Assembly (NCBI GenBank): GCA_049852185.1
Contig: CP187540.1
Length of the DNA stretch: 64,000 nt
Source of the DNA: Methanocaldococcus sp. 28A
GTDB lineage: Archaea > AGJL01 > Methanococci > Methanococcales > Methanocaldococcaceae
Direction: 5' to 3' (one strand)
Shown: positions 4,057 to 59,052 of the stretch, one piece after another
Position numbering within the stretch: position 1 is the stretch's first letter
Layout of the letters: each line of letters opens with the position of its first letter
Notes under the pieces: generated by a model
What the model saw: only the letters and a program-made list of their open reading frames with translations
The model's database searches: none
Told to the model about the DNA's origin: nothing
Translations under genes and position numbers: made by a program

Positions 4057-4110
4057 TTATAATTTTCCAGCAAATTCATAACCTTTATTAAATGCTAATA
4101 AATTTTTCTC
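4057..4110 (-). repeat. Second, recoded copy of the korC 3' end (EKNLLAFNKGYEFAGKL*)
   Basis: 54-bp direct repeat of 4445-4498 with 6 synonymous third-position changes and one E/G codon. Confidence 0.92.
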
Positions 4111-4121
4111 CATCCATAGGG

Positions 4122-4387
4122 CAGTTTCCTTAAATAGAACATACAAATCTATACTTTACACCATCCAAAAATTTTAAATAATACTTTTAACAATACTTTT
4201 AACGATATATTATAGCGTGGCAGTCCCGATATGTGGGGGAAACTAAGCCCGAATGGGACTGCTATTAAGATGAAGATGTGGGGAGTTTCCGTTCCCCCCG
4301 ATTGCCAGCCGATGAAGTTGGGAGGCTGGAAGGTTATCCGCTACGATTCGTTCGATATGTTCCATTTGTAGCGGAGAACCAGAACGG
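4122..4387 (+). mobile_element. Non-autonomous IS607/IS605-like miniature carrying a tnpB-derived RNA
   Basis: Begins CAGTTTCC, ends AACCAGAACGG; interrupts the loop of the CCATAGGGC..CCCTATTGG repeat hairpin; contains tnpB-like coding relics. Confidence 0.65.
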
Positions 4388-4407
4388 AAACCCTATTGGG
4401 ATACCCC
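4216..4407 (+). ncRNA. Putative TnpB omega-RNA/sotRNA-like structured RNA
   Basis: GC-rich island after an AT-rich promoter-like tract; stems GCAGTCCC/GGGACTGC, CCAGCC/GGCTGG, TCCGCTAC/GTAGCGGA; relic frames PICG(G)KLSPNG and KMWGVSVPPDCQPMKLGG. Confidence 0.65.
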
Positions 4408-4440
4408 GATGCATTGCCTCGCTTCGCTCGGCAATGCCTC
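4388..4440. repeat. Palindromic repeat family P (right part of an interrupted copy)
   Basis: CCCTATTGGGATACCCC then hairpin GCATTGCC-TCGCTTCGCTC-GGCAATGC; similar to 6972-7033. Confidence 0.85.
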
Positions 4441-4444
4441 TTTT

Positions 4445-4987
4445 TTATAATTTCTCTGCGAATTCGTAGCCTTTATTAAATGCTAATAAATTCTTTTCTT
4501 CAGTTCCCTTTGGAACGCTATCTAAAATTGCTTTTTCCATACTCTCTTTTGAGACAATATTTGTTAATTTAGTTAAAGCTCCTAACATAACTATATTTGC
4601 AACAATAGGCAATTTTATTTCTTCTGATGCAATTCTTGTAAATGGAATTTTATACATTGTTATATTAACATTAGGCATTTCTTCTGTAGAAACTAAATCC
4701 TCATCAACTAATATAATTCCTCCCTCTTTAATATCATCCTTATATTTATCATAAGCCTGCTGTGATAAACAAACCAAGATATCTGGCTTTATGACTTTTG
4801 GGAAATCTATTGGCTCATCACTAATAACAACCTCTGATTTACTTGCTCCTCCTCTTGCCTCAGGTCCATAAGATTGTGTTTGAACAGCCTCTTTTTTGTC
4901 ATATAAAGCTGCTGCTCTTCCCAAGATAACCCCAGCTAAAATAATCCCTTGCCCACCAAAACCAGATAATCTTATTTCTTTTCTCAT
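4445..4987 (-). CDS. korC: 2-oxoglutarate:ferredoxin oxidoreductase gamma subunit
   Basis: GFGGQGII, SYGPEARGGAS motifs; adjacent to korB. Confidence 0.88.
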   Translation of the reverse strand: MRKEIRLSGFGGQGIILAGVILGRAAALYDKKEAVQTQSYGPEARGGASKSEVVISDEPIDFPKVIKPDILVCLSQQAYDKYKDDIKEGGIILVDEDLVSTEEMPNVNITMYKIPFTRIASEEIKLPIVANIVMLGALTKLTNIVSKESMEKAILDSVPKGTEEKNLLAFNKGYEFAEKL

Positions 4988-5053
4988 TTTAGCTCTCCTC
5001 TTTTAATTTTTGAAATTTTATAAATAATGGTAATGTTAAAAAATATTTATTTT

Positions 5054-5863
5054 TTATTCTTTCATTTTCTCAATTAACTTATGCAATTCATCAACAAACT
5101 CTGGTTTCTCTATATCTAAAAACTCTCCAACAACTATTTTTCCTTCTAATTCTTTATCAATTAAATTTTTTGCTTTATTTAAATGAATAGAGTTTTCTTT
5201 TAAGAATTTAATCATATCAGCTGGTTTTCTTGAGATGTTGAATCTTCCATAGTATGTTGGGCATTGAGAAACAACTTCAATAAACGCAAAGCCCTTCTTT
5301 TGAATACCTTTTTTAATTGATTTAACAAGCTGAATTGGATGAGCTGTTGTCCATCTTGCTACATAAGTAGCTCCTGCTGCTATTGCCAAATTAACTAAAT
5401 CCATAGTATTTTCTATACAACCATAAGGAGCTGTTGTAGCCTTTTTACCATAAGGTGTTGTTGGTGAAACCTGTCCTCCAGTCATTCCATAGATATTGTT
5501 GTTTATACAGATGACAGTTAAATCTATATTCCTTCTACATCCATGGATAAAGTGATTCCCTCCTATAGCCGCTAAATCTCCATCCCCAGTAAATACAACA
5601 ACATGTTTGTCTGGTCTTGCTATCTTAATTCCAGTTGCAAATGCTATCGGTCTTCCATGGGTTGTGTGTAAAGAATCACAATATAAATAACCTGGAATTC
5701 TTGAAGAACATCCAATTCCTGAAACTGCAATATAATCTTCTGGCTTTATGTTTAGCTCCTCAATTGCCTTTAAAAAGCAATTTATAACAATTCCATTTCC
5801 ACATCCAGAACAAAAAATGTGTGGCAACCTATCTTTCCTCATGTATTTTAATGCAGGATGCAA
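5054..5863 (-). CDS. korB: 2-oxoglutarate:ferredoxin oxidoreductase beta subunit
   Basis: FCSGCG, GIGCSS, GDGD TPP motif, YGMTGGQ. Confidence 0.9.
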   Translation of the reverse strand: MHPALKYMRKDRLPHIFCSGCGNGIVINCFLKAIEELNIKPEDYIAVSGIGCSSRIPGYLYCDSLHTTHGRPIAFATGIKIARPDKHVVVFTGDGDLAAIGGNHFIHGCRRNIDLTVICINNNIYGMTGGQVSPTTPYGKKATTAPYGCIENTMDLVNLAIAAGATYVARWTTAHPIQLVKSIKKGIQKKGFAFIEVVSQCPTYYGRFNISRKPADMIKFLKENSIHLNKAKNLIDKELEGKIVVGEFLDIEKPEFVDELHKLIEKMKE

Positions 5864-5929
5864 ACTACCACCTCAAAAAATTTCTAATCAACTTCTAGTA
5901 AATCTTCCAAAGGATGTTGTAAAAGCCTC

Positions 5930-5977
5930 TTAGATTTTTCTCATAATAACTGCATGACTAAGCTCAAATATTACTCC
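5930..5977 (-). repeat. Second copy of the 3' end of gene 6105-6884 (GVIFELSHAVIMRKI*)
   Basis: 27-bp identity of 5939-5965 with 6111-6137 plus diverged in-frame flanks and its own stop. Confidence 0.88.
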
Positions 5978-6109
5978 CAACCTTTTAGTAAAAGGTTGAT
6001 CAAAACGGATGCATTTACCTCTTTTAGAGGCAAATGCCTCTTATATTATAGTGGGGATGAAAGATGTGAAACCCGCTCGGGGTATAGCAATAGGGGCTTT
6101 GTCCCTATG
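5978..6109. repeat. Palindromic repeat family P (composite of two units)
   Basis: CAACCTTTTAGTAAAAGGTTG palindrome, GCATTT..AAATGC hairpin, then inverted CAATAGGGGC..CCCTATG unit that supplies the stop of the adjacent gene. Confidence 0.85.
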
Positions 6110-6884
6110 CTCTCATAATAACTGCATGACTAAGCTCGAACATCGCTCCAGACAGCTCATTACCAATATCTTGAATATCAGATAAGCTTAGTTCAATCTC
6201 GTCTATTTGAACTGATATAGCTACTGGTAAATATTTATATGCTATTTCAAAGAGTTCAAAAGGTTTTGTAAGTAAATCAACGGCAATTAAGCCATTGAAA
6301 CTTTTATCTTCATTGAAATTTTGAGTTATAATCTTATTAATAATAATCTCATCTCTTTCTAAAGATGTTAGAAGATGTTTAATAACTTCTTCTTCATTTT
6401 TTCCAATTCCTTCAAACACAGCTTTAACTCTTATAAAACCTTCTTCTTCAAAATCAACTATTTCCTCTTCATCATATTTACCTTTTTTATATTTCTCTAT
6501 ATCAATATCTTTTTTCTTTTTAACATATACGTTAAATCCAATCTTATAAGTATCAACAAATGATTTAAATACACTTATAACTAAAGCTAAAACCTCGTTT
6601 ATTTCATTAGCCTTAAGTTTTAATTTTTTTGGTTTTATAACTTCAATATCAGCCCCATATTTTAAACAGAAGTTTATATAATCCTTGAAGTTATTAAAAT
6701 TTATCTCAAATTCTCCAATTTTTGTATAAAACTTTAAATTTCCATCTTCTTCTATATCTTCATCCACATATCTAAGTTTAGCATTATATTTTTCTTTCAA
6801 TTCATTAGCTAAGTTTTCAAATTCTTTTTCAACAATTTCTTTATAATTTCCTTTAACTTCTTCTAATGCATGTATTTTTATCAT
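6105..6884 (-). CDS. Conserved Methanococci hypothetical protein
   Basis: 259-aa ORF with RBS (GGTGG) and native codon usage between korB and lysS. Confidence 0.8.
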   Translation of the reverse strand: MIKIHALEEVKGNYKEIVEKEFENLANELKEKYNAKLRYVDEDIEEDGNLKFYTKIGEFEINFNNFKDYINFCLKYGADIEVIKPKKLKLKANEINEVLALVISVFKSFVDTYKIGFNVYVKKKKDIDIEKYKKGKYDEEEIVDFEEEGFIRVKAVFEGIGKNEEEVIKHLLTSLERDEIIINKIITQNFNEDKSFNGLIAVDLLTKPFELFEIAYKYLPVAISVQIDEIELSLSDIQDIGNELSGAMFELSHAVIMRA

Positions 6885-6947
6885 CTTACCACCAAAAAAG
6901 TAAAAATTATTAATAAAACTTAATTTATTATTATAATATTCTTATAA

Positions 6948-6971
6948 TTATAACAAAATCTTTCCCCAGAG
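6948..6971 (-). repeat. Second, recoded copy of part of the lysS 3' end (LGKDFVI)
   Basis: 21/24 identity to 7063-7086, all 3 differences synonymous. Confidence 0.75.
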
Positions 6972-7033
6972 CCATAGGGCTCCGCTCTATTGGATACTCG
7001 GAGATGCACTACCTCGCTTCGCTCGGTAGTGCC
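6972..7033. repeat. Palindromic repeat family P
   Basis: CCATAGGGCTCCGCTCTATTGGATAC...GCACTACC-TCGCTTCGCTC-GGTAGTGC, with compensatory stem changes versus the 4411 hairpin. Confidence 0.88.
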
Positions 7034-7039
7034 TTTTAA

Positions 7040-8632
7040 TTATTTAAATAATGAATATCTTCTTATAACAAAATCCTTTCCAAGAGTTGCTAAGAAAGCA
7101 CCTAACTTTGGACCGTATTTTTTACCCAATAATATCATATACGATGCTTGAAATGCATCTCTTGGATTTAAGCCAAGGTCCTTTGCAGTTTGATAAATCA
7201 ACTCATGCAAGTTTAATGCATCAAACTCAACTGTTTTTAATTTTTCAGCGAAGTATTTAATCCACTCTTTTTGTTTATCCTTCAATTTTTCATATATTTC
7301 TTTTGCTTCATTTTCATCAATTATAACTAACTTCTCTCCATATTTTAAAGCCCAGTTTCTTGCCATTAATAATCTGTCTTTCAATTTTTGCAAGCTGAAA
7401 TCATCAATATTATCTATGTTATAGTTGTTTCTTCTTAATATCTCAAATACTCTTTCCATATCTACATCGTTTTTTTCTTCATTATAAGTTAGCTGGGCAA
7501 TTATTGAGCAGAATCTATAATGAATAACAAAAGGCTTACTTTCAGGAATTTTTGGTGTAGATAATTCATAAATTCTTATTTTTTCCTTTTCTTCTTCACT
7601 TAATTCATCTTTATCTTTATTATTAAAGTAGAATTCCTCTAATCTATCATATTCATCCACTAAGTCAGGAATTTTCTTTAAATCAAAGTCTATATGCTTA
7701 GTTGGCTTACTTCTCAATAATAAAAATCTTAAAATTTCTGGATGAGCGATATGTGTCCAATCTTTTACAGCAAACACAACACCTTTTGAAGAACTCATTG
7801 GAATTGCTTTATCTCCAACTTTTAATTGAATCCACTCATAAACAACCTTTTTTGGAGGTATATAGCTATAGATTTCTTTTGCAATTAAAACTCCAGTATC
7901 ATAAGAGCCCCCAGCAGCTGCATGGTCTTTACCCATTGGCTCAATAGTTACATTAAATATACTCCACCTTGCAGGCCAATCTACTCTCCATGGAAGCTTA
8001 GCTCTCCCTTTATATGGTTTTACCTCTCCAGAGTATCCACATGCCTCACATCTATAAGTTACTTCCTCCTTCTCACTATCATATTTTACAACCTTTGTCT
8101 TTAACTTTCCACATTTTTCACAAACTATATTTATTGGCCACCAATCATCTGGTAATGGTGAAGCCCTAAATTTATTTAAAATTTCCATGATTTTTTCTCT
8201 ATTCTCTAAAGCAATCTTTATCTTTTCATCATAAAGTCCTTTTTTGTAGTTTTCATCAGCTCTATATGTTGTTAGCTCTACTCCTAAATCATCTAAACTC
8301 TCTAAATATGGGTTTAAAAAGTGTTCAGCATAGCTTTTACAACAACCTTCTGGACATGGAATCTCACTTAATGGCATTCCTATATACTGCTCAAACTCTT
8401 TTGGTAAAAATGGATAGAGCTTTCTTAATGGGTCGTAAGTGTCTGCTATAAAGATTAACTCTGCCTCAACACCTTTATTTATCAAACCTTTATAGATTGC
8501 ATCTGCTGTCAATGTTTCTCTTGCATTTCCTACGTGGATATGTCCTGAAGGAGTTATTCCACTCGCAACGATATATTTATCTGCCTTTCTCTCCTCAATC
8601 AGTTTTTCGGCAATTACATCAGCCCAATGCAT
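7040..8632 (-). CDS. lysS: Lysyl-tRNA synthetase, class I
   Basis: [34 protein letters not shown]. Confidence 0.96.
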
Positions 8633-8806
8633 AATTTCCCTCAAAATTTTTGTTTCTTCTTATATTATTTAGAATATAAAATCAAAAAATTTAAATTCTT
8701 TTAAATTGGCGATAATTTGCTAAAATAATAACTACTAAAAATAGTATAAATAACTTAGTTTTGAATAAAAAAAGCTATATTAAATTAATCATCCAAGGTT
8801 TTTTAA

Positions 8807-8900
8807 ATAGGACTTTCGCAGCTTTATATTAATTTGGAATTTAGACACAATAAATGTGTCAATGTTCAATAAAAAATGTTTATTCCTGCAAAAGTCCTAT
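8807..8900. repeat. MITE family B
   Basis: TIRs ATAGGACTTTCGCAG / CTGCAAAAGTCCTAT, central hairpin GACACA..TGTGTC. Confidence 0.88.
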
Positions 8901-8920
8901 TATAGTTATAAATTCACTAA

Positions 8921-9181
8921 TTAATAAAACCTTAACACAATTCTCTTATCTTCTCTGGTGTGAGCCAACTCTAACAAATCATCTAATATCTTTTCAATCT
9001 CGACCTCTATAATACCATACTTGTCATGAACTAATCTTATCAACCCCTCATTGTAGTGCATTAGTTTTCCTTCAACATGAACTCTTCCAAAATATATTTC
9101 AATATACTCCCCACTATCTACATTTTCAAGATATTCCATAACTTCTTTTGGATTTTTTATATCAATTATTTCTTCAATCAT
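8921..9181 (-). CDS. DUF2097-like hypothetical protein
   Basis: EIYFGRVHVEG motif; RBS GGAGG. Confidence 0.75.
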   Translation of the reverse strand: MIEEIIDIKNPKEVMEYLENVDSGEYIEIYFGRVHVEGKLMHYNEGLIRLVHDKYGIIEVEIEKILDDLLELAHTREDKRIVLRFY

Positions 9182-9230
9182 AGTAAATAACCTCCATTTT
9201 TGTTATTAATTATAATAATTTTATTATTAT

Positions 9231-9797
<567 letters not shown>

Positions 9798-9823
9798 CTA
9801 TAAAAACAAAAATTTAAGAAGAT

Positions 9824-12118
9824 TTATTCCTTCTCGAGGTATGAATTTCTTATGTAGTTCAATATTACTTTCTGCTCAGTTCTTGCCACTACTCTTCTTA
9901 TTGTTTCTACAGCATCAATGTTTGCTGACACACTATCTATTCCCCACTCAACCAACTTCTCAACTATGTGTGGTCTGCTTCCTGCTTGCCCACAAATTGA
10001 TGTTTTTATACCATGTTTTTTGCAAGTTTTAATTACATGCTCAACCAATTTTAACACTGCTGGGTGGTCTTCTTTGTAATACTTTGAAACCAATTCGTTG
10101 TTTCTATCTATTGCTATTGTGTATTGAGTTAAATCATTAGTTCCTAAGCTAACAAAGTTTATTCCTTCTTTTATAAAGTCTTCAATGATTAACGCTGCAG
10201 CAGGAGTTTCAACCATAATACCAAATGGAATATCCTTTCCTAACTCTAAACCAATTTCTCTTGCAATTTCTTTAACCTTTCTAACTTCATCTGGATGGGT
10301 TACAAGAGGAACCATTATTTCTATATTTTTGTATCCTTCTTCTCTTAATCTTTTAATTGCCTTTAACTCACATTTTAAGATATCAACTTCATCTAAACCT
10401 CTCCTAATTCCTCTCCAACCTAACATTGGGTTGTGTTCTATTGGCTCATTTTCTCCTCCTTCTAATCCCCTAAATTCATCTGTTGGAGCATCTAATGTTC
10501 TATAAGTTACAGGTCTTGGATAGAAGGCATCTGCTACCTTTCTAATTCCTTCCATTAACGCCTCTATTAATGCCTCTTCTCCCTCTTCTTCTAAAATTTT
10601 CCTTGGATGTTTGCCCAATCCTAATATCATGTGCTCTGCTCTCAATAAACCAACTCCATCAGCCCCTGTCGCTGCAGCTCTTTCAGCCACTTCTGGCATA
10701 CTGACATTAACTTTAACCTCTGTAGCTGTAATAATTGGAGCTTGCTGCTGTATAACAACCTCTGGCTTTTTCTCTTCAATTTTTTTAATCTCTCCTTCAT
10801 ATACAATTCCTTTCTCTCCATCAACTGTAACAACCATACCATCTTTTAAAATCTCTGTTGCCTTTTTTGTTCCTACAACACAGGGTGTTCCGAGCTCTCT
10901 TGAAACAATTGCCGCGTGACAGGTCAATCCTCCCTCATCTGTTATTATAGCCGCTGCTTTTTTCATTGCTGGAACCATATCAGGAGTAGTCATTTGTGTA
11001 ACTAAGATATCTCCTTCTTTAACTTTGTCTATCTCGCTAACGTCTTTAATTATTTTAACAGTTCCAGTGGCAATGCCTGGAGAAGCTCCAATACCCTTTA
11101 ATAATATTTTTGCTTCAATTTCCTCTTCTTTTACTTTTTTCTCTTTTTTACCTTTCTTCAATGTGGTTATAGGTCTTGCTTGAAGCATGTAGAATTTACC
11201 TTTTTCATAAGCCCATTCAACATCCATAGGTTTTCCATAGTGTTTTTCTATATTTATCCCAACTTTTGCAAGTTCTTTAATCTCATCATCCGTTAAAACT
11301 TGCTTTTCCTTCATATCATCAGGAACTTCTACAACTTTTGTCTCTCCCCTCTCATCTTTAACAAACATTGTCTCCTTTCTTGCTATATGTTTATCAACAA
11401 TCTCTAATGTTTTTTTATTAACTATATATGTGTCTGGAGAAACAGAACCGCTAACAACTCCCTCTCCTAATCCCCAAGCAGCTTCAATAACTAACTCATC
11501 ATAATTTTCAGTTATGGGATTAACTGTAAACATAACCCCTGCCTTTTCAGCATTAACCAACTTCTGAACAACAGCTGCTAAGGCAACTTTAAAGTGGTCA
11601 AATCCTTTTTCTTCCCTATAGAAAATAGCCCTTGGAGTAAATAAAGATGAGAAACATTTTTGAACATATTTAACTACATTTTCAGCTCCTTTAACATTTA
11701 AATAGGTATCCTGCTGTCCAGCAAAACTTGCTTCAGGCAAATCTTCAGCAGTTGCAGAACTTCTAACAGCTACTGTTACTTCCTCTTCATTACACATCTC
11801 TGATAATTTGTTATATGCCTCAATGATAGCCAATCTCAAATCTTCTGGCATCTCTGCCTCTTCAATTAATTTTCTAATTTTTTTTGAAGCCTCTATTAAA
11901 GCATCTGTATCGTTAATATCCAAACCGCTTAAAATTTCTTTTATTTTATCCATTAGACCAGTATCTTTTATAAAATATCTATAAGCATCGGCAGTAACAA
12001 CAAATGCAGGTGGAACTGGCAATCCAGCGTTCCACATCTCACCTAATGAAGCTCCTTTACCTCCAGCAATATTAACATCTTTATTTGATAATTCATCCAA
12101 CCATGCAATCAGTTTCAT
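9824..12118 (-). CDS. ppsA: Phosphoenolpyruvate synthase (intein-free)
   Basis: GGKGASLGE, VRSSATAEDLP, GGLTCHAAIVSRELG. Confidence 0.96.
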   Translation of the reverse strand: MKLIAWLDELSNKDVNIAGGKGASLGEMWNAGLPVPPAFVVTADAYRYFIKDTGLMDKIKEILSGLDINDTDALIEASKKIRKLIEEAEMPEDLRLAIIEAYNKLSEMCNEEEVTVAVRSSATAEDLPEASFAGQQDTYLNVKGAENVVKYVQKCFSSLFTPRAIFYREEKGFDHFKVALAAVVQKLVNAEKAGVMFTVNPITENYDELVIEAAWGLGEGVVSGSVSPDTYIVNKKTLEIVDKHIARKETMFVKDERGETKVVEVPDDMKEKQVLTDDEIKELAKVGINIEKHYGKPMDVEWAYEKGKFYMLQARPITTLKKGKKEKKVKEEEIEAKILLKGIGASPGIATGTVKIIKDVSEIDKVKEGDILVTQMTTPDMVPAMKKAAAIITDEGGLTCHAAIVSRELGTPCVVGTKKATEILKDGMVVTVDGEKGIVYEGEIKKIEEKKPEVVIQQQAPIITATEVKVNVSMPEVAERAAATGADGVGLLRAEHMILGLGKHPRKILEEEGEEALIEALMEGIRKVADAFYPRPVTYRTLDAPTDEFRGLEGGENEPIEHNPMLGWRGIRRGLDEVDILKCELKAIKRLREEGYKNIEIMVPLVTHPDEVRKVKEIAREIGLELGKDIPFGIMVETPAAALIIEDFIKEGINFVSLGTNDLTQYTIAIDRNNELVSKYYKEDHPAVLKLVEHVIKTCKKHGIKTSICGQAGSRPHIVEKLVEWGIDSVSANIDAVETIRRVVARTEQKVILNYIRNSYLEKE

Positions 12119-12246
12119 TGTTATCCCCTTTTATGTTTTAGACAATTATTAATAGTATATTGAAGATTATATAAACTTTTATGTTTACATAGATTTAAAT
12201 ATATGGATAAATTTGTTAATGATAAAATAGCAATAGAGCTTGAAGA

Positions 12247-12299
12247 TATAGTTTTGTGCAAAAGGATTTAAAACTTAGTTTATTTTGTACAAAACTATA
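12247..12299. repeat. MITE family A, internally deleted copy
   Basis: TATAGTTTTGTGCAAAA / TTTTGTACAAAACTATA. Confidence 0.7.
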
Positions 12300-12333
12300 A
12301 TTATTTAAAAATAGAAAAAATGAATTAAGGTTT

Positions 12334-12858
12334 TTACTGCTTAATTAATTCTTTTCCTTGCTCAATGACTATTCTACATGGAATAGGCAGTTTCATTGCT
12401 GCTCTTCTTAAAGCCTCTTTAGCATCTTGGAATTTGTCAGGGTTAACCCATACTGTTAAGATTGCTTGTCCTTCTTTAACTCTCGCTGCTGTTCCAATTG
12501 GTTTTCCAAATGCTAATCTCATACCATCTGAAATTCTATCTGCCCCAGCTCCTGTAGCCATTTTGTGCTCTCTCAATATTTGGTGTGGATAAACTCTAAT
12601 TTGGAATTTATATCCTAATCTTCCGCATTTTTTTGTTAAATATTTGTTTGCAGCAACTCTTGCAGCTTCTAATGCATTGTGTCTTATTTGAATTGGTTTT
12701 GTAGCAACTAAATTAACTTTAACTGGGAATTCAGCTGATAAGTTGCCCATAATGTAGTGAACTACTTTTGGTTGTGGAACTCCTTTAACATACTCTTTTC
12801 TTGTGTATGGTGGCTTATCAACATCCCTATAGCATCTGTTTGGTCTTAAAGAAGCCAT
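12334..12858 (-). CDS. rpl10e: 50S ribosomal protein uL16 (L10e)
   Basis: [31 protein letters not shown]. Confidence 0.96.
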
Positions 12859-12991
12859 TATCATCACCTATTTTTTGTATCTGTTTCGTATAGATAAAGA
12901 TAAGATTTTAGTGTTTGTAGTTCCTAATATATATAAAATTTATCATTCTTGCATATTCCTAACTTACTATTTAAAGCTTACTGTTATTTTT

Positions 12992-13086
12992 ATAGAACTT
13001 TTGCAGGGATATAATAATTTCGTATGAAAAATTAATGTTAATAGAGCATCTAAATTCAGAGAATATACAAACTGCAAAAGTTTTAC
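12992..13086. repeat. MITE family B, degenerate
   Basis: ATAGAACTTTTGCAG / CTGCAAAAGTTTTAC. Confidence 0.7.
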
Positions 13087-13090
13087 ATTA

Positions 13091-14681: not shown

Positions 14682-14682
14682 C

Positions 14683-49712: not shown

Positions 49713-51218
49713 ATGTTTAACAAAGTTTTAATTGCCAATAGAGGAGAGATAGCCATTAGAATTATAAGGGCTTGTTGGGAGCTTGGAATAAAAACTGTAG
49801 CTGTTTATTCTGAGGCAGATAAAAAAGCATTACATGTTTCTTTAGCTGATGAAGCTTATTGTATAGGAAAACCCCCTGCAGCTAAAAGTTATCTAAATAT
49901 TAATGCCATTCTAAATGTTGCTGAAAAGGCAAAAGTTGATGCTATTCATCCTGGATATGGATTTTTAGCTGAAAATGCTGAATTTGCAAGGGCTGTTAAA
50001 AAGGCAGGTTTTGAATTTATTGGGCCTAATCCTGATGCTATAGAGGCTATGGGAAGTAAGATTAATGCTAAAAAAATTATGAAAAAAGCTGGTGTGCCTT
50101 TAATTCCTGGTAGTGAGGGGGCTGTTGAAGATGTAGATGAGGCAATAGAAATTGCTGAAGAGATAGGATTTCCTGTAGTTGTTAAAGCTTCTGCTGGCGG
50201 TGGCGGAATGGGAATGAGCGTAGCATATAACAAAGAAGAGCTAAAAGAAGTTATGGAATCCGCAAGAAATATAGCAAAAAGTGCATTTGGCGACCCAACA
50301 GTGTTTATTGAAAAATACTTAGAGAATCCAAGACACATTGAAATTCAGTTATTGGGGGATAAGCATGGAAATATTATCCATTTAGGTGATAGAGAGTGTT
50401 CTATTCAAAGAAGACATCAAAAATTAATTGAAGAAGCTCCATCTCCAATAATGACTGAAGAGTTAAGAGAAAGGATGGGGGAGGCTGCAATCAAAGCAGG
50501 TAAGGCAATAAATTATGATAGCGCAGGAACTGTTGAGTTTTTATATGAAAATGGTAATTTCTACTTCTTAGAGATGAACACAAGGATTCAAGTTGAGCAT
50601 ACAGTTACAGAGCAAGTTACTGGAATTGATTTAGTTAAGGCTATGATTAGAATAGCTGCTGGAGAAGAGCTAAGCATAAAGCAAGAAGATGTTAAGATAA
50701 GAGGGCATGCAATTGAATGTAGAATAAATGCAGAAGACCCATTAAATGATTTCGTCCCATGTCCTGGAAAAATAAAGTTATATAGGTCTCCAGGAGGACC
50801 GGGGGTTAGGATAGATAGTGGTGTCTGTGGAGGGGCAGAGATTCCTCCATACTACGACCCTATGATAGCTAAATTAATAACTTATGGAAATAGCAGAGAG
50901 GAGGCAATAGCAAGGATGAGAAGAGCTTTAAAAGAGTATGTCATTGTTGGAGTAACAACAAACATCCCCTTTCACAGGGCTGTTTTAGAGGAAGAGAACT
51001 TTTTAAAAGGGAATATCTCAACTCACTATGTTGAGCAAAATATGGAAAAATTGAAAAAGAAAATGGTTCAATATACCTTAGAATCAAGAGATTTATACAG
51101 TGTTGTATCAGAGAAGGTATTTGAAAAGAACAAAAAGATTGCTGCTGTAGTTGGTGGTTTAACAATGTATATCTCCCAAATTATGAAAGAAAATGAAAAA
51201 AATGAAAAGAAACAGTAA
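49713..51218 (+). CDS. pycA: Pyruvate carboxylase subunit A (biotin carboxylase)
   Basis: [38 protein letters not shown]. Confidence 0.95.
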
Positions 51219-51280
51219 AATATCTTATAACAGTAATATTTATATAATATAAGGCAATAGTTATTAAAAGCTTCTTTTTA

Positions 51281-51374
51281 ATAGGACTTTCGCAGGAATA
51301 AAATTTTTATTGAATATAGACACCTAAAGGTGTCAAAGTTCATTAATTCAACGTATAAACTGCGAAAGTCCTAT
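51281..51374. repeat. MITE family B, best-preserved copy
   Basis: Perfect TIR ATAGGACTTTCGCAG; central hairpin GACACC-TAAA-GGTGTC. Confidence 0.92.
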
Positions 51375-51403
51375 TTAATGAAATTAAATAAAAGGTGATA
51401 ATA

Positions 51404-51802
51404 ATGCCAGGAACTAAGCAAGTTAACGTCGGTTCTTTAAAAGTTGGACAGTATGTTATGATTGATGGAGTTCCATGTGAGATTGTAGATATCAGTGTTT
51501 CAAAGCCAGGAAAACACGGAGGAGCTAAGGCAAGAGTCGTAGGGATTGGAATATTTGAAAAAGTTAAGAAGGAGTTTGTTGCTCCAACATCAAGTAAAGT
51601 AGAAGTTCCAATAATTGACAGAAGAAAAGGACAAGTTTTAGCTTTAATTGGAGATATGGTCCAAATTATGGACTTACAAACTTATGAAACATTAGAGTTA
51701 CCAATTCCAGAAGGTATTGAAGGATTAGAGCCTGGAAGAGAAGTAGAATACATTGAAGCTGTTGGACAGTACAAAATAACAAGAGTAATTGGTGAAAAAT
51801 AA
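51404..51802 (+). CDS. eif5a: Translation factor aIF-5A
   Basis: SKPGKHGGAK hypusine motif. Confidence 0.96.
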   Translation: MPGTKQVNVGSLKVGQYVMIDGVPCEIVDISVSKPGKHGGAKARVVGIGIFEKVKKEFVAPTSSKVEVPIIDRRKGQVLALIGDMVQIMDLQTYETLELPIPEGIEGLEPGREVEYIEAVGQYKITRVIGEK

Positions 51803-51829
51803 ATATTTAAATTTTAAATTAAATTTCAA

Positions 51830-51929
51830 ATAGGACTTTCGCACTTTATATAATTAATATTAATAAGGAAAATATGATGCCTATGGCATCAAATCTACCT
51901 TTCAATATTTATACCTGCTAAAGTCCTAT
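51830..51929. repeat. MITE family B overlapping the 3' end of the radical SAM gene
   Basis: ATAGGACTTTCGCA / TGCTAAAGTCCTAT, hairpin GATGCC-TAT-GGCATC, flanking TTCAA duplication. Confidence 0.88.
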
Positions 51930-52646
51930 TTCAAAAACACCATTTACAGTTCTTATAATAACATTGTTAATATATTTTTTTGCTATTTTTCCTAATTTTA
52001 TTAATTCCTCTTCTTTTGGAGGATTTATTTTTCTAAATTCTTCATCATAAGCGTCTTTTGGCTCAAACTGTTGGATTGCATATAAATCACAATCTTTGAC
52101 TGTTTTTGCTATCTCCTCTATATCACTTTCATCCATAACTTTTGGAACATATGTTGTTCTACACTCAACAAAGACATTGTTATTTTTGCATAAATCGATA
52201 ATCTTTAATATTTTCTTTTTAATTTCTTCTCCATCTTCTTCACACTTTGTAAAATCTCTGTATTTGTCAAATTTGCATTTTACATCAACTGCTACATAAT
52301 CAATTAAATTATTTTTTACAAGTTCTTCAAAAACTTCTGGTTTTGTGCCATTTGTATCAATTTTTACTGGAAATCCCTTTTCTTTAGCATATCTTGCTAT
52401 CTCTATTAAAGCATCTTTTTGCAAAGTTGGTTCCCCACCACTTATAACAATAGCGTCAGCAAAGAAAAAGTCAATATTATTAAAAAGCTCTTCAACTGTC
52501 ATTTCCTTTTTATGCTCTAAAATATATTTTAGATTATGGCAGTAAGGGCATCTCATATTACAATTATATAAAAATATGACAGCAGAGCATTTTTTTGGAT
52601 AATCAATTGTTGAAAAATCTACTATTCCTGAAACCAGAACTTTCAT
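51918..52646 (-). CDS. Radical SAM activating enzyme (anaerobic RNR activase-like)
   Basis: CNMRCPYCHN, SGGEPTLQ, DTNG. Confidence 0.88.
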   Translation of the reverse strand: MKVLVSGIVDFSTIDYPKKCSAVIFLYNCNMRCPYCHNLKYILEHKKEMTVEELFNNIDFFFADAIVISGGEPTLQKDALIEIARYAKEKGFPVKIDTNGTKPEVFEELVKNNLIDYVAVDVKCKFDKYRDFTKCEEDGEEIKKKILKIIDLCKNNNVFVECRTTYVPKVMDESDIEEIAKTVKDCDLYAIQQFEPKDAYDEEFRKINPPKEEELIKLGKIAKKYINNVIIRTVNGVFEIGL

Positions 52647-52654
52647 TTTTTCAC

Positions 52655-55057
52655 CTAATCAATTTTTAGTCTTTTTAACAGAAGAATTTTAATTTCATCT
52701 TCAAGTAACATCCAAGCATGGGCAAATACCCACATAAATAAAGCTAAATTCCATCCAATTGGTGCCATAAATATTCCTTCAGCAGCCACTATAGTTCCTA
52801 TTATGTTTGTTCCCATAACTCCCCAAAATAGCCATTTATTTGGATATGGCTTTTTATAAAATCTATCTCTAATTCTTGTAACAAATATAGTAGCATGTCC
52901 TGCTAATATCAACTTTAAAAATACAAAGCTTTGCAATTCTGCAATTGTTAAATGTAAGAAAACATCTGCTATGTAGAATATTAAGAATGAACCTACGACA
53001 CCACTAAATCCCAATATAGTAGATATAATTAGAATCTCTTTCATTTTCCATTTTGCAGGATATTTTGGCTCAATAACATTGTCATAAGCTATTGCCAATA
53101 TGGGAATATCATTTAAGATTGCTAAAAGCACAATCATCAAAGCAGTTATTGGATATATTCCTAAGATTAATATACAGAGCTCAACAAAAAATAAGATTCT
53201 TATTGTCTCAGTAATTCTATAAATAACATAACTTTCCATTCTTTGAAATATTCTTCTCGCCTCTTGAATGGCATCAACAATAACAGAGATTCCTGGAGAT
53301 AATAAGACAATATCAGCAGCAGCTCTTGCGGCATCTGTTGCATTAGAAACTGCAATCCCACAATCAGCTTTTTTTAAAGCTGGAGCATCATTAACTCCAT
53401 CTCCAGTCATTGCTACCATATGGTTTTTCTTTTGCAATGAATCAACAATCTTATATTTATGCTCTGGAAATACCTCAGCAAATCCATCTGATTCTTCAAT
53501 AATATCAATAAATTCCTCTTCTTTAATTTCTCCTCTTTTTAATTTTTTCAACAATTCACTTATAGATATAATTTTGTCTCCAATTCCAAGCATCTTTGCA
53601 ATATTTTTTGCTATTGCTATATGGTCACCAGTAACCATCTTTATTTTAACTCCAAGTTCTTTAATCTTCTTAACTGCCAAAGGTGCATCTTCTCTTGGAG
53701 GGTCGTACAATGGAATTATTCCAACAAAGTACCATTTATTATTTTTATATACAGCTACACCTAAAGCTCTATAACCATTTTCAGCAAGTTTATTAACTAT
53801 TTCATTCACTTTCTTTCTTAAATTTTCATCTGCATTGCATAAGTCTAATATAACTTGAGGAGCCCCTTTTGAGACTTTAAACTCCTCTCCATTTGTAACA
53901 TCTGCTTCTGTCCTTTTAATAACTGGGTCAAAGGGTATGAATTTTTTTATTTTATATTTTTTTATTTTTTCAATTAAACCCAATTTTTTAGCCTCATTTA
54001 AAATTGCAGTATCTATAGCATCAGCATCTTCCTCTCTTGATGCCAAAGCAGCATATAAAATAACATCCTCCTTAGTAAAATTATTTAGAGCTATTATCTC
54101 TCCACATACGAGTTGATTTTTTGTCAAAGTTCCAGTTTTGTCTGAGCAGAGAATATCAACTCCTGCCAACTCCTCAATAGAAACAAGCTTTTTTACTATG
54201 ACATCTTTCTTTGCTAAATTTAATGCCCCTATAGCCATTGTTATTGAGAGAACAGCAGGCATTGCTGCAGGTATAGCAGAAACAGCCAACACTAAGGCAA
54301 ATTGAGCCGTTTCTATTAAGCTCTTTCCTCTAAATAACTCAACGGCAACCATTATTGCTATTAAAACAACTGACAAAATTATCAAATAGTTTCCAATATT
54401 AACAATCATCTTTTGATAAGAACTAACTTTTCCTGCCTTTTCAACCAACTTAACAGTTTTTCCAAAGTATGTATTTAGAGCAGTAGCTTTAACCACTCCA
54501 GTCATTTCTCCCTTTTTAACAATAGAACCAGAATAAGCAATATCCCCTATTTTCTTTTCTACTGGCAAACTCTCTCCAGTTAAGGCGGATTCATCCACAA
54601 CTAAATAATCCCCTTCGACTAATATTATATCAGCTGGAACAATATCTCCAATTCTTACTCTAATAACATCTCCTGGCACTAATTCTTTTGCTAAAATTGT
54701 TTTCCACTTTCCATCTCTTAAAACTCTTGCATTTAAAGCCATTTTTTGTTTTAAATATTCTATAACATTCTCTGCTTTATGTTCTTCCCAAAAACCTACG
54801 ACTCCATTAACAATTAATAAAATTAAAATTATAACAAAATCTACCCAGTGTTTGATTATAGCTGACAAAATAGCTGCTATCTCAATCATCCAAGCAATAG
54901 GATTCCAAAAGTATGATAGAAATTTGATTATTGGATGTACTTTCTTTTCTGGGATTTCATTATAACCATAAATTTTTAATCTTTCTTTTGCCTCTTCTGT
55001 AGATAATCCAGTTCTCAAAGAGGTTTTATATTCTTCTTCAATTTTTTTGATGTCCAT
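52655..55057 (-). CDS. P-type IIIA (H+-type) ATPase
   Basis: TGES, DKTGTLT, KGAP, DPPR, TGDGVNDAPALK. Confidence 0.93.
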   Translation of the reverse strand: MDIKKIEEEYKTSLRTGLSTEEAKERLKIYGYNEIPEKKVHPIIKFLSYFWNPIAWMIEIAAILSAIIKHWVDFVIILILLIVNGVVGFWEEHKAENVIEYLKQKMALNARVLRDGKWKTILAKELVPGDVIRVRIGDIVPADIILVEGDYLVVDESALTGESLPVEKKIGDIAYSGSIVKKGEMTGVVKATALNTYFGKTVKLVEKAGKVSSYQKMIVNIGNYLIILSVVLIAIMVAVELFRGKSLIETAQFALVLAVSAIPAAMPAVLSITMAIGALNLAKKDVIVKKLVSIEELAGVDILCSDKTGTLTKNQLVCGEIIALNNFTKEDVILYAALASREEDADAIDTAILNEAKKLGLIEKIKKYKIKKFIPFDPVIKRTEADVTNGEEFKVSKGAPQVILDLCNADENLRKKVNEIVNKLAENGYRALGVAVYKNNKWYFVGIIPLYDPPREDAPLAVKKIKELGVKIKMVTGDHIAIAKNIAKMLGIGDKIISISELLKKLKRGEIKEEEFIDIIEESDGFAEVFPEHKYKIVDSLQKKNHMVAMTGDGVNDAPALKKADCGIAVSNATDAARAAADIVLLSPGISVIVDAIQEARRIFQRMESYVIYRITETIRILFFVELCILILGIYPITALMIVLLAILNDIPILAIAYDNVIEPKYPAKWKMKEILIISTILGFSGVVGSFLIFYIADVFLHLTIAELQSFVFLKLILAGHATIFVTRIRDRFYKKPYPNKWLFWGVMGTNIIGTIVAAEGIFMAPIGWNLALFMWVFAHAWMLLEDEIKILLLKRLKID

Positions 55058-55182
55058 AAATATCCCCTATATGTGGAAAAATAATAAATTAAAAAATATA
55101 GACTTCTAAAAGTATCTAAAAATTTATTAATATAATATATGTTGAATGTTCTATTTATATATTTATGCAAAATAAGCTAAAC

Positions 55183-55847
55183 TGTGGTATCCCAAAAATA
55201 TTTCGCATCTATAAATAATAAAAAAGATAACATAAATAATATGGGCGGTGTAAAACTTGACGATAAAAAGATTAAGGAAATTATTAGATGGAAGGAGAAG
55301 GGATTTAAAACGAGAGATATTGCTAAGAAGTTGGAGATATCCACTCGTAAAGTTCAGCAGATATGGAAAGAATATCGAGAGACTGTAGAAATCCCAAATA
55401 TAAAGCGTAAAGGTCGAAACCCGAGAGAAATTACTCAGGAAGAGATAGATATTGTCCTTAAAGCAGTCGAAGAATATAAGGGAACAAGCCCAGTCCATTT
55501 GGAGCATTTTATCGAACGTAGGTATAATATACATATTCCACATAATCGTATATATACTATACTGAAACAATATGGTAAAATACAACCTAAATAGGAAAAG
55601 TTGAACGGATAAATAGAGAGGTGAGTATCGACTAAATAGATTTGATAGTTTAGAAGAGTTCGTAGATTGAATGAAATCACTAATGTGATTTCATAGCTCT
55701 TCACTACGCTCCAATTGAAATAATAAAATAAAACCACATCGTTCTTTAGATTATAGGACTCCTTATGAAGTTTATTTCGGAAATATAGTTAATAATATGG
55801 AGGTAATTTCATGAATTATAATTGCGAAATAATTTCAGGATACCACA
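55183..55847 (+). mobile_element. IS481-family remnant, internally deleted (665 bp)
   Basis: TGT..ACA ends, 25-bp imperfect TIRs TGTGGTATCCCAAAAATATTTCGCA / TGTGGTATCCTGAAATTATTTCGCA; HTH-only ORF 55240-55594 followed by broken integrase-core relics. Confidence 0.85.
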
Positions 55848-55866
55848 CTGAATTTGGAGGGAGATT

Positions 55867-57707
55867 ATGAAAAAAATGCTAGCTTTGCTGTTAATAATAT
55901 TTCTTTTAAATTCAGCTTTTGCAGTAATTATAAAAGCTCCAGCTGTGTCTTTGACAGATGTAGGATATATTGGAGTTCCAATAAATATACAAATAAATGT
56001 TACTAAAGGAGATGGGCACGTTTTCATGGATACTATGCCCTTAACTGAATTAGACATGCAGGGCTCTGCAAGAATCGCTGCAAGAGTGGCAGGAGAAGTA
56101 ACAGGAAAAGACATAAACAAATACAATACCTACATTATTGTTAGAAGTGATGTTCCAGTTATTGGAGGGCCATCAGCAGGAGGAACAATGACTATAGGTA
56201 TTATCTGTGCATTAATGAACTGGACTATAAATAAAAATGTTATGATGACGGGTACAATAAACCCGGATGGTAGTATTGGTCCAGTAGGGGGAATTTTGGA
56301 AAAAATAGAAGCAGCTAAAAAAGCAAATTGTACAATTATGCTAATACCAAAAGGGCAGAGGTATATTGAAGTAGATGGTAATAAAGTAGATGCAGTGGAA
56401 TTTGGTAAAAAATTGGGGATTAAAGTTATAGAAGTAGGAAGTATTTATGATGCAATTCCTTACTTTACTAATAAAAAAATTGTTATGAAAGAATATCCTA
56501 AAAATCCAATTATTGAGGATAAATACCAAAAAATAATGAAACATTTATGTGAAGACATCTTAAAATTGGCAAATAAAAAGTATGAAAATGTATCCAAAGA
56601 ATTGAATGAAGACTTATATATTATTAATTATGAATATCAAAAAATGTTATCGTCTGAGCTAATAGCTTCAAAAACCTTATTAGAGAAAGCTAATCAAGAA
56701 TATATAAAGCTAATCAAGAATATATTAATAATAAATATTATTCTGCAACATGTTCAGCATTTAATGCATTAATTAAACTTGAAACTATTGAACATACCCT
56801 AAAATACTTAACTGGTGAAGAAGATATAAAAAATTACCTTTTAAATGTTCAAAATAAGATAAACTATGATAAAGAAATAGTTTATTCAAAAAATTTAACT
56901 GTAGATAACTTTGAAGAAATATTAGCAGGAAGAGTTAGAATTGCTGAAGCTGAAGAGCTCTTAGACAAAGCTTGGAAGTCTTATTACTTAGGAAATTATG
57001 ACGATGCAATAAAATACGGTAGCTTTGCAAAGTTAAGAGGGGATAGTGCAGTGTGGTGGGTTTCTTTATATGAAAACAATGAAAGTGAAAGAATAAATGA
57101 ATCTAAATTAAAATCTTTAGCTCAGCAGTATTTAGATAATGCTGAAACAATTTCAACTTATGTAGAGACATTATACCCTAACTTAGTTACTGGAGATCTT
57201 GAAAATGATTTAGAATCAGCAAAAAAAGCTTATAATCAGAAAGATTATCTATTGGCAATAGCTAAAAGCATAGACACTTGCGTAAAAGCAGAGATTCCAT
57301 TAGTTATATTTGGGGATATGAAATATTTTATAGAATATTTAAAAAAATATTCAAGAGATAAAATAAACATGGCTGAAAACTTAGGAATAACTCCAATATC
57401 TGCCCTTGGTTATTATGAATATGCAAATAGCTTAGATGACAACATATCAAAGATTATGTATTATAAATATAGCTCATACTATGCCCAAATGGATGTAGAT
57501 GTGGTAAAAGAGTTGAATGAGGTTAATAAAGGAACTAAAGAAAGTTTTGAGAATGAAATTGATATAATTAATACAAATGAAAATATTGTTAATGAAGAAA
57601 CTGCCACAAAGCAAAATAATAATAACATTACCATTATCATATCTACAATAGTTGGAGGACTGATAGGGTTTGTAGGAGGATACTTTGCAAGAAAAGTTTC
57701 TACTTAA
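55867..57707 (+). pseudogene. Secreted S16 (Lon proteolytic domain) serine protease, frameshifted
   Basis: Signal peptide, [16 protein letters not shown]-terminal TM; frame broken by a 20-bp tandem duplication at 56686-56725. Confidence 0.88.
56686..56725 (+). repeat. Perfect 20-bp tandem duplication
   Basis: AAAGCTAATCAAGAATATAT x2. Confidence 0.95.
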
Positions 57708-57712
57708 TTAGA

Positions 57713-57979
57713 CTGTTTCCCATTTCCATAGCTTATCATAGTATAACAAATTATCATACAAACTGATAGCTATGGAAATGTGTTGTCCTCAACCCATAGC
57801 TTCATAGAGATTACTAATCTCTCTACTAAGGGTTCATTGGACTTCGGGCTGAACGGATACAGCCCCACAAACCTTATATTATTAAATTATGTTAGCCTCG
57901 AAGGTAGAGCCCTCTCATCAGCCAATAAATTAATATTACCTTTTATATTTTACAATATGCTATAGAAACCAGAAAACTG
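57713..57979 (-). mobile_element. Non-autonomous IS607/IS605-like miniature carrying an omega-RNA-like RNA
   Basis: Minus strand begins CAGTTTTC and ends GGGAAACAG; contains TGTGGGGC..GTTCAGCCCGAA..CCAATGAACCC..GGGTTGA and a long terminal hairpin at 57721-57780; 267 bp versus 266 bp for the 4122 element. Confidence 0.55.
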
Positions 57980-57981
57980 TT

Positions 57982-58041
57982 TCAAACTCTCTTTTTAATC
58001 TCCCTTGCTATTACCCTACTCAATGTTGGTGGAACACTCTC
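57982..58041 (-). repeat. Second, recoded copy of the DNA methylase 3' end (ESVPPTLSRVIAREIKKRV*)
   Basis: 60-bp direct repeat of 58111-58170; 9 synonymous and 3 non-synonymous codon differences. Confidence 0.92.
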
Positions 58042-58044
58042 CTC

Positions 58045-58108
58045 CGAACCTTTTAGTAAAAGCTTCACTAAAACATAACACCTCCTCGCTTACACTCGGA
58101 GGTGTAAC
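58045..58108. repeat. Palindromic repeat family P
   Basis: GAACCTTTTAGTAAAAGCTTC palindrome plus ACACCTCC-TCGCTTACACTC-GGAGGTGT hairpin. Confidence 0.85.
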
Positions 58109-58110
58109 TT

Positions 58111-59052
58111 TTATAACCTCTTTTTAATTTCTTGAGCTATAACTCTACTTAATATTGGCGGAACGCTTTCTCCAATTTGATTATATTGAGCATCTCTTCC
58201 TCCAAAAAATACAAAATTATCAGGATAGCTCATTAATCTTGCTTGTTCTCTTACAGTTAATAATCTATCTTCATAAGGATGAACAAATCTACTTCTTCCT
58301 TTAACAGTTGGGGCTAACTTATGAGGATGGAGACGATACCAATTAAACATTAGTTTTTTCTTTCCTCTATATCTATATAATGCCTCTCCCCACTTTAATT
58401 TTGATATTTTTTCTATTTTTTCCTTAGAAAGCTTTTTAATCTCATGGTTTTTAGCATCTTTTGGAATATCTTTTAATGCTTCATCAACAACAACGATTTT
58501 ATCTACTTTTTCTGGTTTTAATTTTATATTTGAAATAAACATCCTTGCTCTTTTTGAAGGATTTCCGTAATCTTCAGCTTTCAATATATTAAAATAAACC
58601 TTATGCCCTATATCTCCAAACAACTTTTTTAATTCATCCTTAATTTCTTTAATTTGTGGGACATTTTCCATAACAAATATTAAATCATCATTTTTTTGTG
58701 TAAAGTAATCAACATAATTAATATAGTATAAAACTAACCTACCAATTTTGTCTTTATACAATCTATCTAATGGATTATCTTTAATTAGTTTATTTGCCTT
58801 TGTAAATGGCTCACATGGAGGAGAGCCGATAATTACATCAACTTTCTCATTTTTTATAAATTCATCAAATGCTTTTGGAGGAATTTTCTTTATATCATCC
58901 ATCCACACTGGAGCTTTGATATTGTATAGATAAGTTTTAACTACTGGCTTAAAGTTCTCAATAGCTCCCAAAATTTTAAAGTTTTCATCTAAAAAACCTT
59001 TTGAAAATCCTCCACATCCACAAAATAAATCTATGACATTTATAGTTTCCAT
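58111..59052 (-). CDS. Orphan C5-cytosine DNA methyltransferase
   Basis: DLFCGCGG, GSPPC, ENV, R.RMF, LTVREQARL, QIGESVPP; no adjacent endonuclease. Confidence 0.92.
   Translation of the reverse strand: METINVIDLFCGCGGFSKGFLDENFKILGAIENFKPVVKTYLYNIKAPVWMDDIKKIPPKAFDEFIKNEKVDVIIGSPPCEPFTKANKLIKDNPLDRLYKDKIGRLVLYYINYVDYFTQKNDDLIFVMENVPQIKEIKDELKKLFGDIGHKVYFNILKAEDYGNPSKRARMFISNIKLKPEKVDKIVVVDEALKDIPKDAKNHEIKKLSKEKIEKISKLKWGEALYRYRGKKKLMFNWYRLHPHKLAPTVKGRSRFVHPYEDRLLTVREQARLMSYPDNFVFFGGRDAQYNQIGESVPPILSRVIAQEIKKRL

Follow-up and report, generated by a model that had tools for sequence, protein, structure and literature searches.

Hairpin repeats tied to duplicated gene ends in Methanocaldococcus sp. 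28A, and a possible route for their spread by homologous recombination

A modular hairpin repeat in the genome of Methanocaldococcus sp. 28A is strongly tied to duplication of the sequence beside it, most conspicuously the ends of genes. The arrangement came to attention in a 64,000-nucleotide stretch of contig CP187540.1 (GenBank assembly GCA_049852185.1), referred to here as the window, in which four genes are each followed by the repeat and then by a second, orphan copy of the gene end. The two copies are not, or not only, ordinary target duplications: the differences between them are silent in excess, their divergence is highest next to the repeat, and segments have been exchanged between them. 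The half of each copy beside the repeat is old or foreign, and the far half is the resident allele. We put at about even the chance that the repeat, together with a gene tail and the head of an orphan copy, spreads to homologous sites by host homologous recombination, a proposal built on sequence comparison. Below, the genome that holds the window (1.55 Mb, 99.9% complete) is called G000, positions on its contig carry the prefix C1, and the duplicated stretch at a locus is called D. Sixteen other species of the genus were searched, and the closest, G011, was compared over its whole genome (94.5% identity over long alignments).

Duplications beside a modular hairpin repeat

A first-pass annotation, made from the letters of the window alone, had reported the order gene, repeat, second copy of the gene end at four genes. 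That order is present at all four, with the genes on the minus strand, and it recurs throughout the genome (13 of 33 repeat clusters plus four loci, see below). The orphan copies had also been said to begin by a repeat terminus, and they do, each abutting the end of an A hairpin or of a T hairpin. Pfam names three of the genes, as a POR gamma-type subunit ("korC"), a class I lysyl-tRNA synthetase (lysS) and a C-5 cytosine DNA methylase; the fourth, a hypothetical gene in open reading frame (ORF) 6105-6884, matched no Pfam family. In window coordinates the loci are composed as follows.

4057..4110, minus strand: korC orphan, 17 codons plus TAA; abuts the A-hairpin terminus; its 3' part equals the G011 allele bar 1 nt
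4111..4444, plus strand: korC composite repeat; left arm of the A hairpin at ~4114-4129, nested GC-rich element at ~4130-4385 within the A loop
4386-4444, plus strand: korC composite repeat, right arm and B hairpin, with the T run at its end, beside the korC stop
4445..4498, minus strand: korC-like gene, working last 17 codons plus stop; the 3' two-thirds has 5 silent differences from the empty-site allele of G011
5930..5977, minus strand: hypothetical-gene orphan; copy 5939-5977, then the final 2 native codons and the stop (5930-5932)
5978..6110, plus strand: hypothetical-gene repeat; T hairpin, B-like hairpin and inverted A hairpin
6111..6149, minus strand: hypothetical gene, working copy of the 13 duplicated codons, within ORF 6105-6884; new TAG stop from the repeat
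6921..6971, minus strand: lysS orphan end; core 6948-6971 plus a decayed, AT-enriched tail
6972..7039, plus strand: lysS repeat, a two-hairpin unit (A plus B)
7040..7086, minus strand: lysS working end; duplicated core 7063-7086 plus tail to the stop at 7040-7042
57982..58041, minus strand: C5 methylase orphan end (ESVPPTLSRVIAREIKKRV, then TGA); abuts the T-hairpin terminus
58042..58110, plus strand: C5 methylase repeat, T hairpin and "X" hairpin; matches the copy at G000:C1:664810-664877 at 66/69 positions
58111..58170, minus strand: C5 methylase, working last 19 codons plus stop

Recounting the codons reproduced the earlier figures at two loci. At korC, 18 codons are duplicated and seven differ, six silently and one as a Glu/Gly change, with TAA ending both copies; at lysS, all three differences in the 24-nt core (7063-7086 versus 6948-6971) are silent. 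The working lysS gene continues 8 codons past the core, to 7040, and since the first part of that tail (RRY), which could pass for filler, is homologous to the tail of the G011 gene, the real duplication is ~50 nt long and the orphan tail has decayed. For the methylase, nine silent changes among 12 had been given; the differences are indeed mostly silent, but our recount over the 20 duplicated codons is 10 silent (TAA/TGA counted) and 3 non-silent. The hypothetical gene does carry a duplication, but its extent had been overdrawn (5930-5977 versus 6105-6149) and is truly 39 nt, 6111-6149 versus 5939-5977, with 1 silent and 2 non-silent changes. The working copy of this gene has lost its own stop and is ended by a TAG inside the repeat, and the orphan reads on to the native stop, matching the uninterrupted gene end in G011.

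The repeat is modular, assembled from four kinds of hairpin: A, which starts CCATAGGG; B, which has a T run behind it; T; and "X", present at the methylases. Searching the 1.55-Mb genome by nhmmer gave 64 module matches at E <= 0.1 (27 A, 14 B and 23 T), and the 58 at E <= 0.01 form 33 clusters; the three module hidden Markov models under-count the family, missing the loci at C1:254k, 387k and 751k. B-hairpin matches occur in all 16 genus genomes (16/16) and in some of the sister family. Double, compensatory changes are found at 4 of the 12 pairs of the B stem, with 17-19 of 19 sequences paired per position, and as single-stranded DNA the repeat units fold better than shuffled sequences (z-scores -2.3 to -3.8). 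The element nested in the loop of korC hairpin A (window 4130-4385, ~260 bp) is GC-rich and has inverted GTTTCC/GGAAAC borders; its core of ~110-200 bp has 4 other copies in G000, 87-90% identical, and numerous ones in certain relatives (G028, G016), and together with the adjacent B hairpin (4205-4445) it gives an RNA fold z of -4.6. An Rfam search recognized neither the repeats nor the nested element, the sole match by E-value being a weak one to GA-cis (E 0.47). The family is probably that of the MJRE repeats published for M. jannaschii. Within ~20 nt after a B end at G000:C1:650467-650491, 1430243-1430262 and 1291216-1291236, there follow a GGTGA motif for ribosome binding and the start codon (ATG) of the downstream gene; the repeat, or companion sequence, may supply translation signals at these three loci.

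To quantify the association, the 130 bp to the left of each cluster were aligned with the 130 bp to its right, with 1000 random sites as the control. A score of at least 33 was reached by 13 of the 33 clusters; the random sites had a median of 18 and a 99th percentile of 32. These 13 clusters have direct flank duplications of 23-75 bp, compared with ~1% of random sites, and one of them is a repeat pair of a CRISPR (clustered regularly interspaced short palindromic repeats) array. The outcome that the first-pass annotation had named as fatal to its reading, duplications equally common away from the repeat, is therefore not what is seen. Four duplication loci were found outside the flank test: korC, whose cluster was missed because only its B module clustered, and C1:254k, 387k and 751k, which came from an unbiased scan for direct repeats. 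That scan listed 109 non-array direct repeats of at least 24 nt, 14 with modules between the copies; the 95 without are intragenic repeats, tRNA similarities, tandem duplications, other families resembling miniature inverted-repeat transposable elements (MITEs), and AT-rich chance matches.

Comparison with relatives shows the same association as empty and filled sites. A collinear-alignment scan of G000 against G011 found 13 distinguishing insertions with a duplication of at least 20 bp, nine of which carry hairpin modules (one recognized by eye only). In these nine the overlap at the empty site is 33-53 bp (six events) or 21-27 bp (three), and the inserts are non-coding and 34-336 bp long. 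Starting instead from the 33 clusters, G011 has syntenic flanks for 20 and lacks the repeat at 11; the duplications are 27-60 bp at seven of the 11, and at the other four the overlap is 2, 6 or 12 bp or there is none. Long duplication is thus frequent but not obligatory, and its lengths are continuous. Empty sites hold a single D, and the two states are distributed patchily among species, as at three loci scored wherever both anchors were found.

korC locus: empty 5, filled 3, of 8 loci with both anchors
Radical-SAM gene end: empty 8, filled 4, of 12 loci with both anchors
Adenylosuccinate lyase end: empty 9, filled 4, of 13 loci with both anchors

Some filled sites have junctions in common between species. 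At the radical-SAM gene both junctions are common to G000 and G004 (the G004 copy has decayed), and the junctions at the hypothetical gene are common to G000 and G010 and to G000 and G006.

The first-pass annotation had called the pattern a replacement of gene 3' ends. Gene 3' ends are duplicated, but so are the first 8-22 codons of the genes at C1:650k, 254k and 1508k and a stop, ribosome-binding site and start junction at 26k. Because the layout also occurs at gene starts and gene junctions, and 4 of the 11 lineage-specific insertions overlap by 0-12 bp or not at all, replacement of a 3' end is one result among others and not the rule.

Silent differences and allele mosaics

Fifteen coding pairs, comprising 206 codons, could be compared, and 46 of their 69 differing codons are silent. 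The neutral expectation at the observed transition bias is 27% silent (p = 6e-12), and a model in which the orphan decays neutrally while the working copy is constrained predicts 40% (p = 7e-6). The enrichment at synonymous sites noted in the window thus extends across the genome, and together with the concentration of divergence beside the repeat it upholds the earlier contention that these are not ordinary target-site duplications. That concentration appears in seven events in which both copies could be set against the empty allele of G011: mismatches number 9 in 273 positions in the repeat-distal halves of D and 32 in 274 in the repeat-proximal halves, a 3.9-fold higher divergence next to the repeat (Fisher p = 2.6e-4).

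Within single loci the divergence takes the form of a mosaic. The 5' part of the korC working copy equals G011 and its 3' part differs at 5 silent sites; in the orphan the situation is reversed, and its 5' codons are of a type found in the working alleles of G015, G001 and G010. Two internal segments have changed places at the lyase locus, G000 carrying in copy 1 what G011 carries in copy 2 and vice versa, and both copies carry the same species-specific variants within G004 and within G014. Homologous recombination inside the gene, part of the model first put forward, is needed to explain such mosaics. Gene conversion alone was considered as the cause of the silent excess and rejected by argument, without simulation.

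The methylases provide a second kind of mosaic, between paralogues. The repeat behind the window methylase and that behind a paralogous methylase at C1:664.8k are 96% identical over the repeat plus its junctions; identity is 67-73% in the gene bodies and 77% and 72% in the two D copies. The G011 orthologue of the 664k methylase has an empty site and a gene end of ..AKVVKENLK-stop (..SRAIAKVVKENLK-stop). The orphan tail at 664k in G000 equals this orthologous tail (29/30 nt identical), and the working copy equals G011 over its first 35 nt and then switches to ..AREIKNNL-stop, which resembles the ..EIKKRL-stop or ..EIKKKL-stop of the other methylase. Along the 664k duplication identity falls abruptly from 33/35 to ~17/27 (hand count), and the switch points lie in identities of ~10 nt. 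Since the orphan has the native tail and the working tail is paralogue-like, the native end of the 664k gene has been displaced by a repeat-linked tail of the paralogue type. Among methylase gene ends in 17 genomes the layout is present at 9 of 24; every orphan begins with the same conserved ESVP codons (the same 11 nt), orphan tails vary (..LIK-stop, ..LKNK-stop, ..LKK-stop), and working tails always run to a Leu-stop directly at the repeat. It had been proposed that one of the two copies is an allele from another lineage. The working tail at 664k is indeed non-resident, but usually only the repeat-proximal parts of both copies stand apart from the resident allele, in a reciprocal mosaic.

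A possible recombination route and its rivals

The route that we favour would begin from a filled allele that already exists; the origin of the first duplication at a locus lies outside the model. A DNA stretch running from the tail of copy 1 through the repeat into the head of copy 2 would have an ends-in configuration relative to a naive homologous site, whether a paralogue or the orthologue of another lineage. Entry into such a site could be through ends-in homologous recombination (of the insertion, or Campbell-like, type) or through template switching; the crossovers would fall inside D, in some cases within identities of ~10 nt. Integration would re-create the duplication and install the repeat-linked gene tail, leaving resident sequence in the distal halves and in the orphan, and later recombination between the copies would either excise the unit precisely or swap segments between them. 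Precise excision of this kind would produce a patchy distribution, and because every part of D would periodically serve as working coding sequence under selection, an excess of silent changes would follow. The model would explain why silent changes are in excess, why divergence is highest near the repeat, why junctions are common between species despite a patchy distribution, and how the repeat spreads between paralogues. A further step, which we advance tentatively and with less confidence than the route itself, is that the hairpin and its two flanking gene pieces form a new, enzyme-less mobile unit that uses the duplicated target as integration arms, homes into orthologues and paralogues while rewriting their last or first codons, and is lost by recombination between the copies. 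On this reading, conversion could be biased toward the unit by breaks that the hairpins induce, or by stalled forks, in a polyploid cell.

Several observations weigh against this proposal. The coding pairs are heterogeneous, and in two of them the changes are mostly non-silent (0 of 5 silent at 26k, 3 of 8 at 664k). The copies at C1:1494736/1494851 are identical at 43 of 43 positions and both differ from G011 at 3, as expected of a fresh target duplication or of gene conversion. At two gene ends species differ in repeat variant and duplication border, which looks like independent hits and does not follow from spread guided by homology; at the radical-SAM gene, G015 and G001 have another variant and another border. 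The korC orphans of three species have a common Gly codon that is absent from the working alleles, which suggests long vertical descent of an orphan. Nor does a mosaic by itself show import, since the empty sites of G011 could stem from crossover excision between diverged copies.

One rival is ordinary if unusual transposition, in which an enzyme inserts the hairpin element at staggered cuts of 0-75 bp, the copies start out identical, the working copy changes silently and the orphan decays; the empty sites of relatives would be ancestral or would result from precise excision between the repeats. We regard this as unlikely, though it is the most serious competitor. The identical 43-bp copies, a 48-bp pair with 1 mismatch, the continuous duplication lengths from 0 to 75 bp, the orphans that have decayed or shifted frame (at lysS; in G004/G014), and the variants and borders that differ from species to species at one gene end all suit it, as do the target duplications of 3-26 bp of Yersinia YPAL/RU-2 repeats (PMC2229807). 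It does not explain a silent excess above the neutral-orphan expectation, the steeper divergence adjoining the repeat, or the 664k duplication, where identity drops abruptly and the orphan tail is the working tail of a sister species, and no transposase is tied to the repeats. Recent copy-and-paste was rejected, as near-identical full-length source copies for the repeat units are absent from G000 and G011 (the best are 90-94% identical, with one pair at 97%); given the ~5.5% divergence of the two genomes, missing source copies are still compatible with transposition since their split.

A single ancient insertion per locus that persists as an old haplotype is in our view improbable. Lineages would exchange the neighbouring genes by ordinary homologous recombination, which would homogenize the surroundings up to points within D, the bases beside the repeat would remain divergent in a recombination shadow, and there would be no transfer to naive or paralogous sites. 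The contrast between proximal and distal divergence, the junctions common to distant species (at the radical-SAM gene G000 with G004, at the hypothetical gene G000 with G010 and with G006) and the Gly codon of the korC orphans agree with this history. It is harder to reconcile with a 96%-identical repeat with the same junctions behind methylase paralogues that are only 67-77% identical around it, with the paralogue-type tail installed in one of them, and with repeat-proximal orphan differences that fall mostly at third codon positions (~22/25, hand count), unexpected in a stretch long orphaned.

Site-specific or HUH-type integration, in which a recombinase would link repeat end and target, with an attP-like arm of the element supplying its own copy of the gene end, is the least probable of these alternatives and in our judgement very unlikely. 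The layout does resemble phage or island att sites in gene 3' ends, of which e14/phage 21 at E. coli icd is an example, the orphan always abuts a defined hairpin terminus, and methylase orphans always begin at the same 11 nt. Yet the duplications of different genes have no common core, the insert holds no recombinase, and the crossover points lie within D rather than at its border. The first-pass annotation had argued against a classical integrase with a single att site, and this stands: there is no common core, and the two tyrosine recombinase genes of G000 (PF00589), like its two Cas1 genes, are more than 2 kb from any repeat. Its own proposal of strand transfer of the repetitive extragenic palindromic (REP)/HUH type finds no support: the only Y1/HUH gene found in G000 (a single PF01797 match) belongs to an ordinary tnpA-tnpB IS200/IS605 element with ends unlike the repeat, ~2.6 kb from the nearest module.

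Other candidate systems were rejected on the same searches. Retro-insertion, whether by target-primed reverse transcription or by a diversity-generating retroelement, was set aside because a search for reverse transcriptases (PF00078) gave 0 matches in the 99.9%-complete genome; insertion of the Cas1 or integrase type because those genes are not beside repeats and the duplication length is not fixed; a REP/RAYT (REP-associated tyrosine transposase; REPIN) system because no Y1/HUH gene is flanked by the repeats; and a classical MITE or other element derived from an insertion sequence because duplications of 0-75 bp are not a fixed length and the ends of the sole IS200/IS605 are unlike the repeat.

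The first-pass annotation knew of no description of its pattern. The repeat family itself has probably been described. The MJRE1-3 repeats of M. jannaschii, published by Suyama, Lathe and Bork in FEBS Lett in 2005, are said to be small GC-rich palindromes in many copies, mostly at gene borders and in some cases read through as coding sequence; the family here is likewise palindromic and hairpin-forming, in many copies, mostly extragenic and from the same genus. The abstract of that work is said to make no mention of flanking duplications, displaced gene ends or allele mosaics. Integration of phages and islands into gene 3' ends, as with e14/phage 21 at icd, brings an element-borne replacement end and displaces the native end, with mostly silent differences; unlike it, the present case lacks both an integrase and a common att core, its targets are many and unrelated, and the element consists only of a hairpin repeat. 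In ends-in homologous recombination, as used for insertion-duplication mutagenesis, a single region of homology is duplicated and the copies are reciprocal hybrids, but the homology here is only 23-75 bp. We know of no description of ends-in recombination as a natural route of spread for a repeat family. Insertion with long target duplication, for its part, is said to have been reported by Nobusato et al. in 2000.

Long and variable duplication is also known for restriction-modification genes from the survey by Furuta, Abe and Kobayashi (2010, PMC2853133), which gives variable target duplications of more than 30 bp, often overlapping a gene 3' end, by an unknown mechanism, with the empty site of a relative aligning with both copies and no mobility gene in the insert. 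The units described are bacterial, and the survey kept no archaeal case. Our insertions are alike in their long variable duplication, in the empty site that aligns with both copies and in an insert devoid of a mobility gene. They are unlike the kilobase-scale cargo and near-identical copies described there (PMC2853133) in that a hairpin repeat of 34-336 bp is found at many loci, flanked by copies that are mosaics of alleles; restriction-modification cargo is absent, and two loci merely adjoin C5 methylase genes. With the Yersinia YPAL/RU-2 repeats (Delihas 2008, PMC2229807) and with other bacterial MITE- or REP-like repeats, the family has in common non-coding palindromes with internal inverted repeats, variable target duplications and cotranscription or cotranslation with neighbours. 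Unlike YPAL/RU-2, its duplications reach 75 bp and its coding tails differ as alleles do. Literature searches, which did not cover supplementary files, found neither flanking duplications nor displaced gene ends nor mosaics of alleles described for these archaeal repeats.

If the proposed route is correct, hairpin repeats that encode no enzyme reshape the ends and starts of housekeeping genes in hyperthermophilic methanogens (korC, lysS, a purB-type lyase, methylases), leaving at each site a fossil of the former allele. Such loci would constitute a natural base-resolution record of recombination among lineages and among paralogues, and would give insertion with long target duplication, which has lacked a mechanism since it became known in 2000, a concrete and testable route. 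For annotation, it would mean that gene ends beside these repeats are chimeric and that orphans may be mistaken for small ORFs or RNAs.

Other elements in the window and the genome

Modules also stand near CRISPR-like sequence. At G000:C1:184681-184789, modules A, A and B lie between two CRISPR repeats, inside an array or at its edge, and in G010 ~0.9 kb separates the korC orphan from the next gene and holds several ~30-nt repeats that resemble a small CRISPR array.

In the single IS200/IS605 element of G000 (tnpA 143 aa, tnpB 392 aa), the 3' end of tnpB is present as a perfect tandem duplication of 317 bp at C1:829401-830034; G011 has one copy. Perfect 47-nt direct repeats 228 bp apart at G000:C1:900808-901082 enclose AT-rich filling with no hairpin module, are absent in G011, and are probably a plain tandem duplication. 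The window contains a MITE-like element of ~90 bp (51283-51372) with 13-nt terminal inverted repeats (AGGACTTTCGCAG) and an internal hairpin; its site is empty in G011, and related ends occur elsewhere in both genomes. A C/D-box small RNA, sR3 (701-755), is the sole Rfam match at the gathering threshold in the window. Finally, an AT-rich MITE-like family with an internal hairpin and ends resembling TTTATTTTGCACAAA is found at G000:C1:717167, 1021647, 1218369, 1388821 and 1443626, and is polymorphic between G000 and G011 with empty-site overlaps of 12-34 bp.

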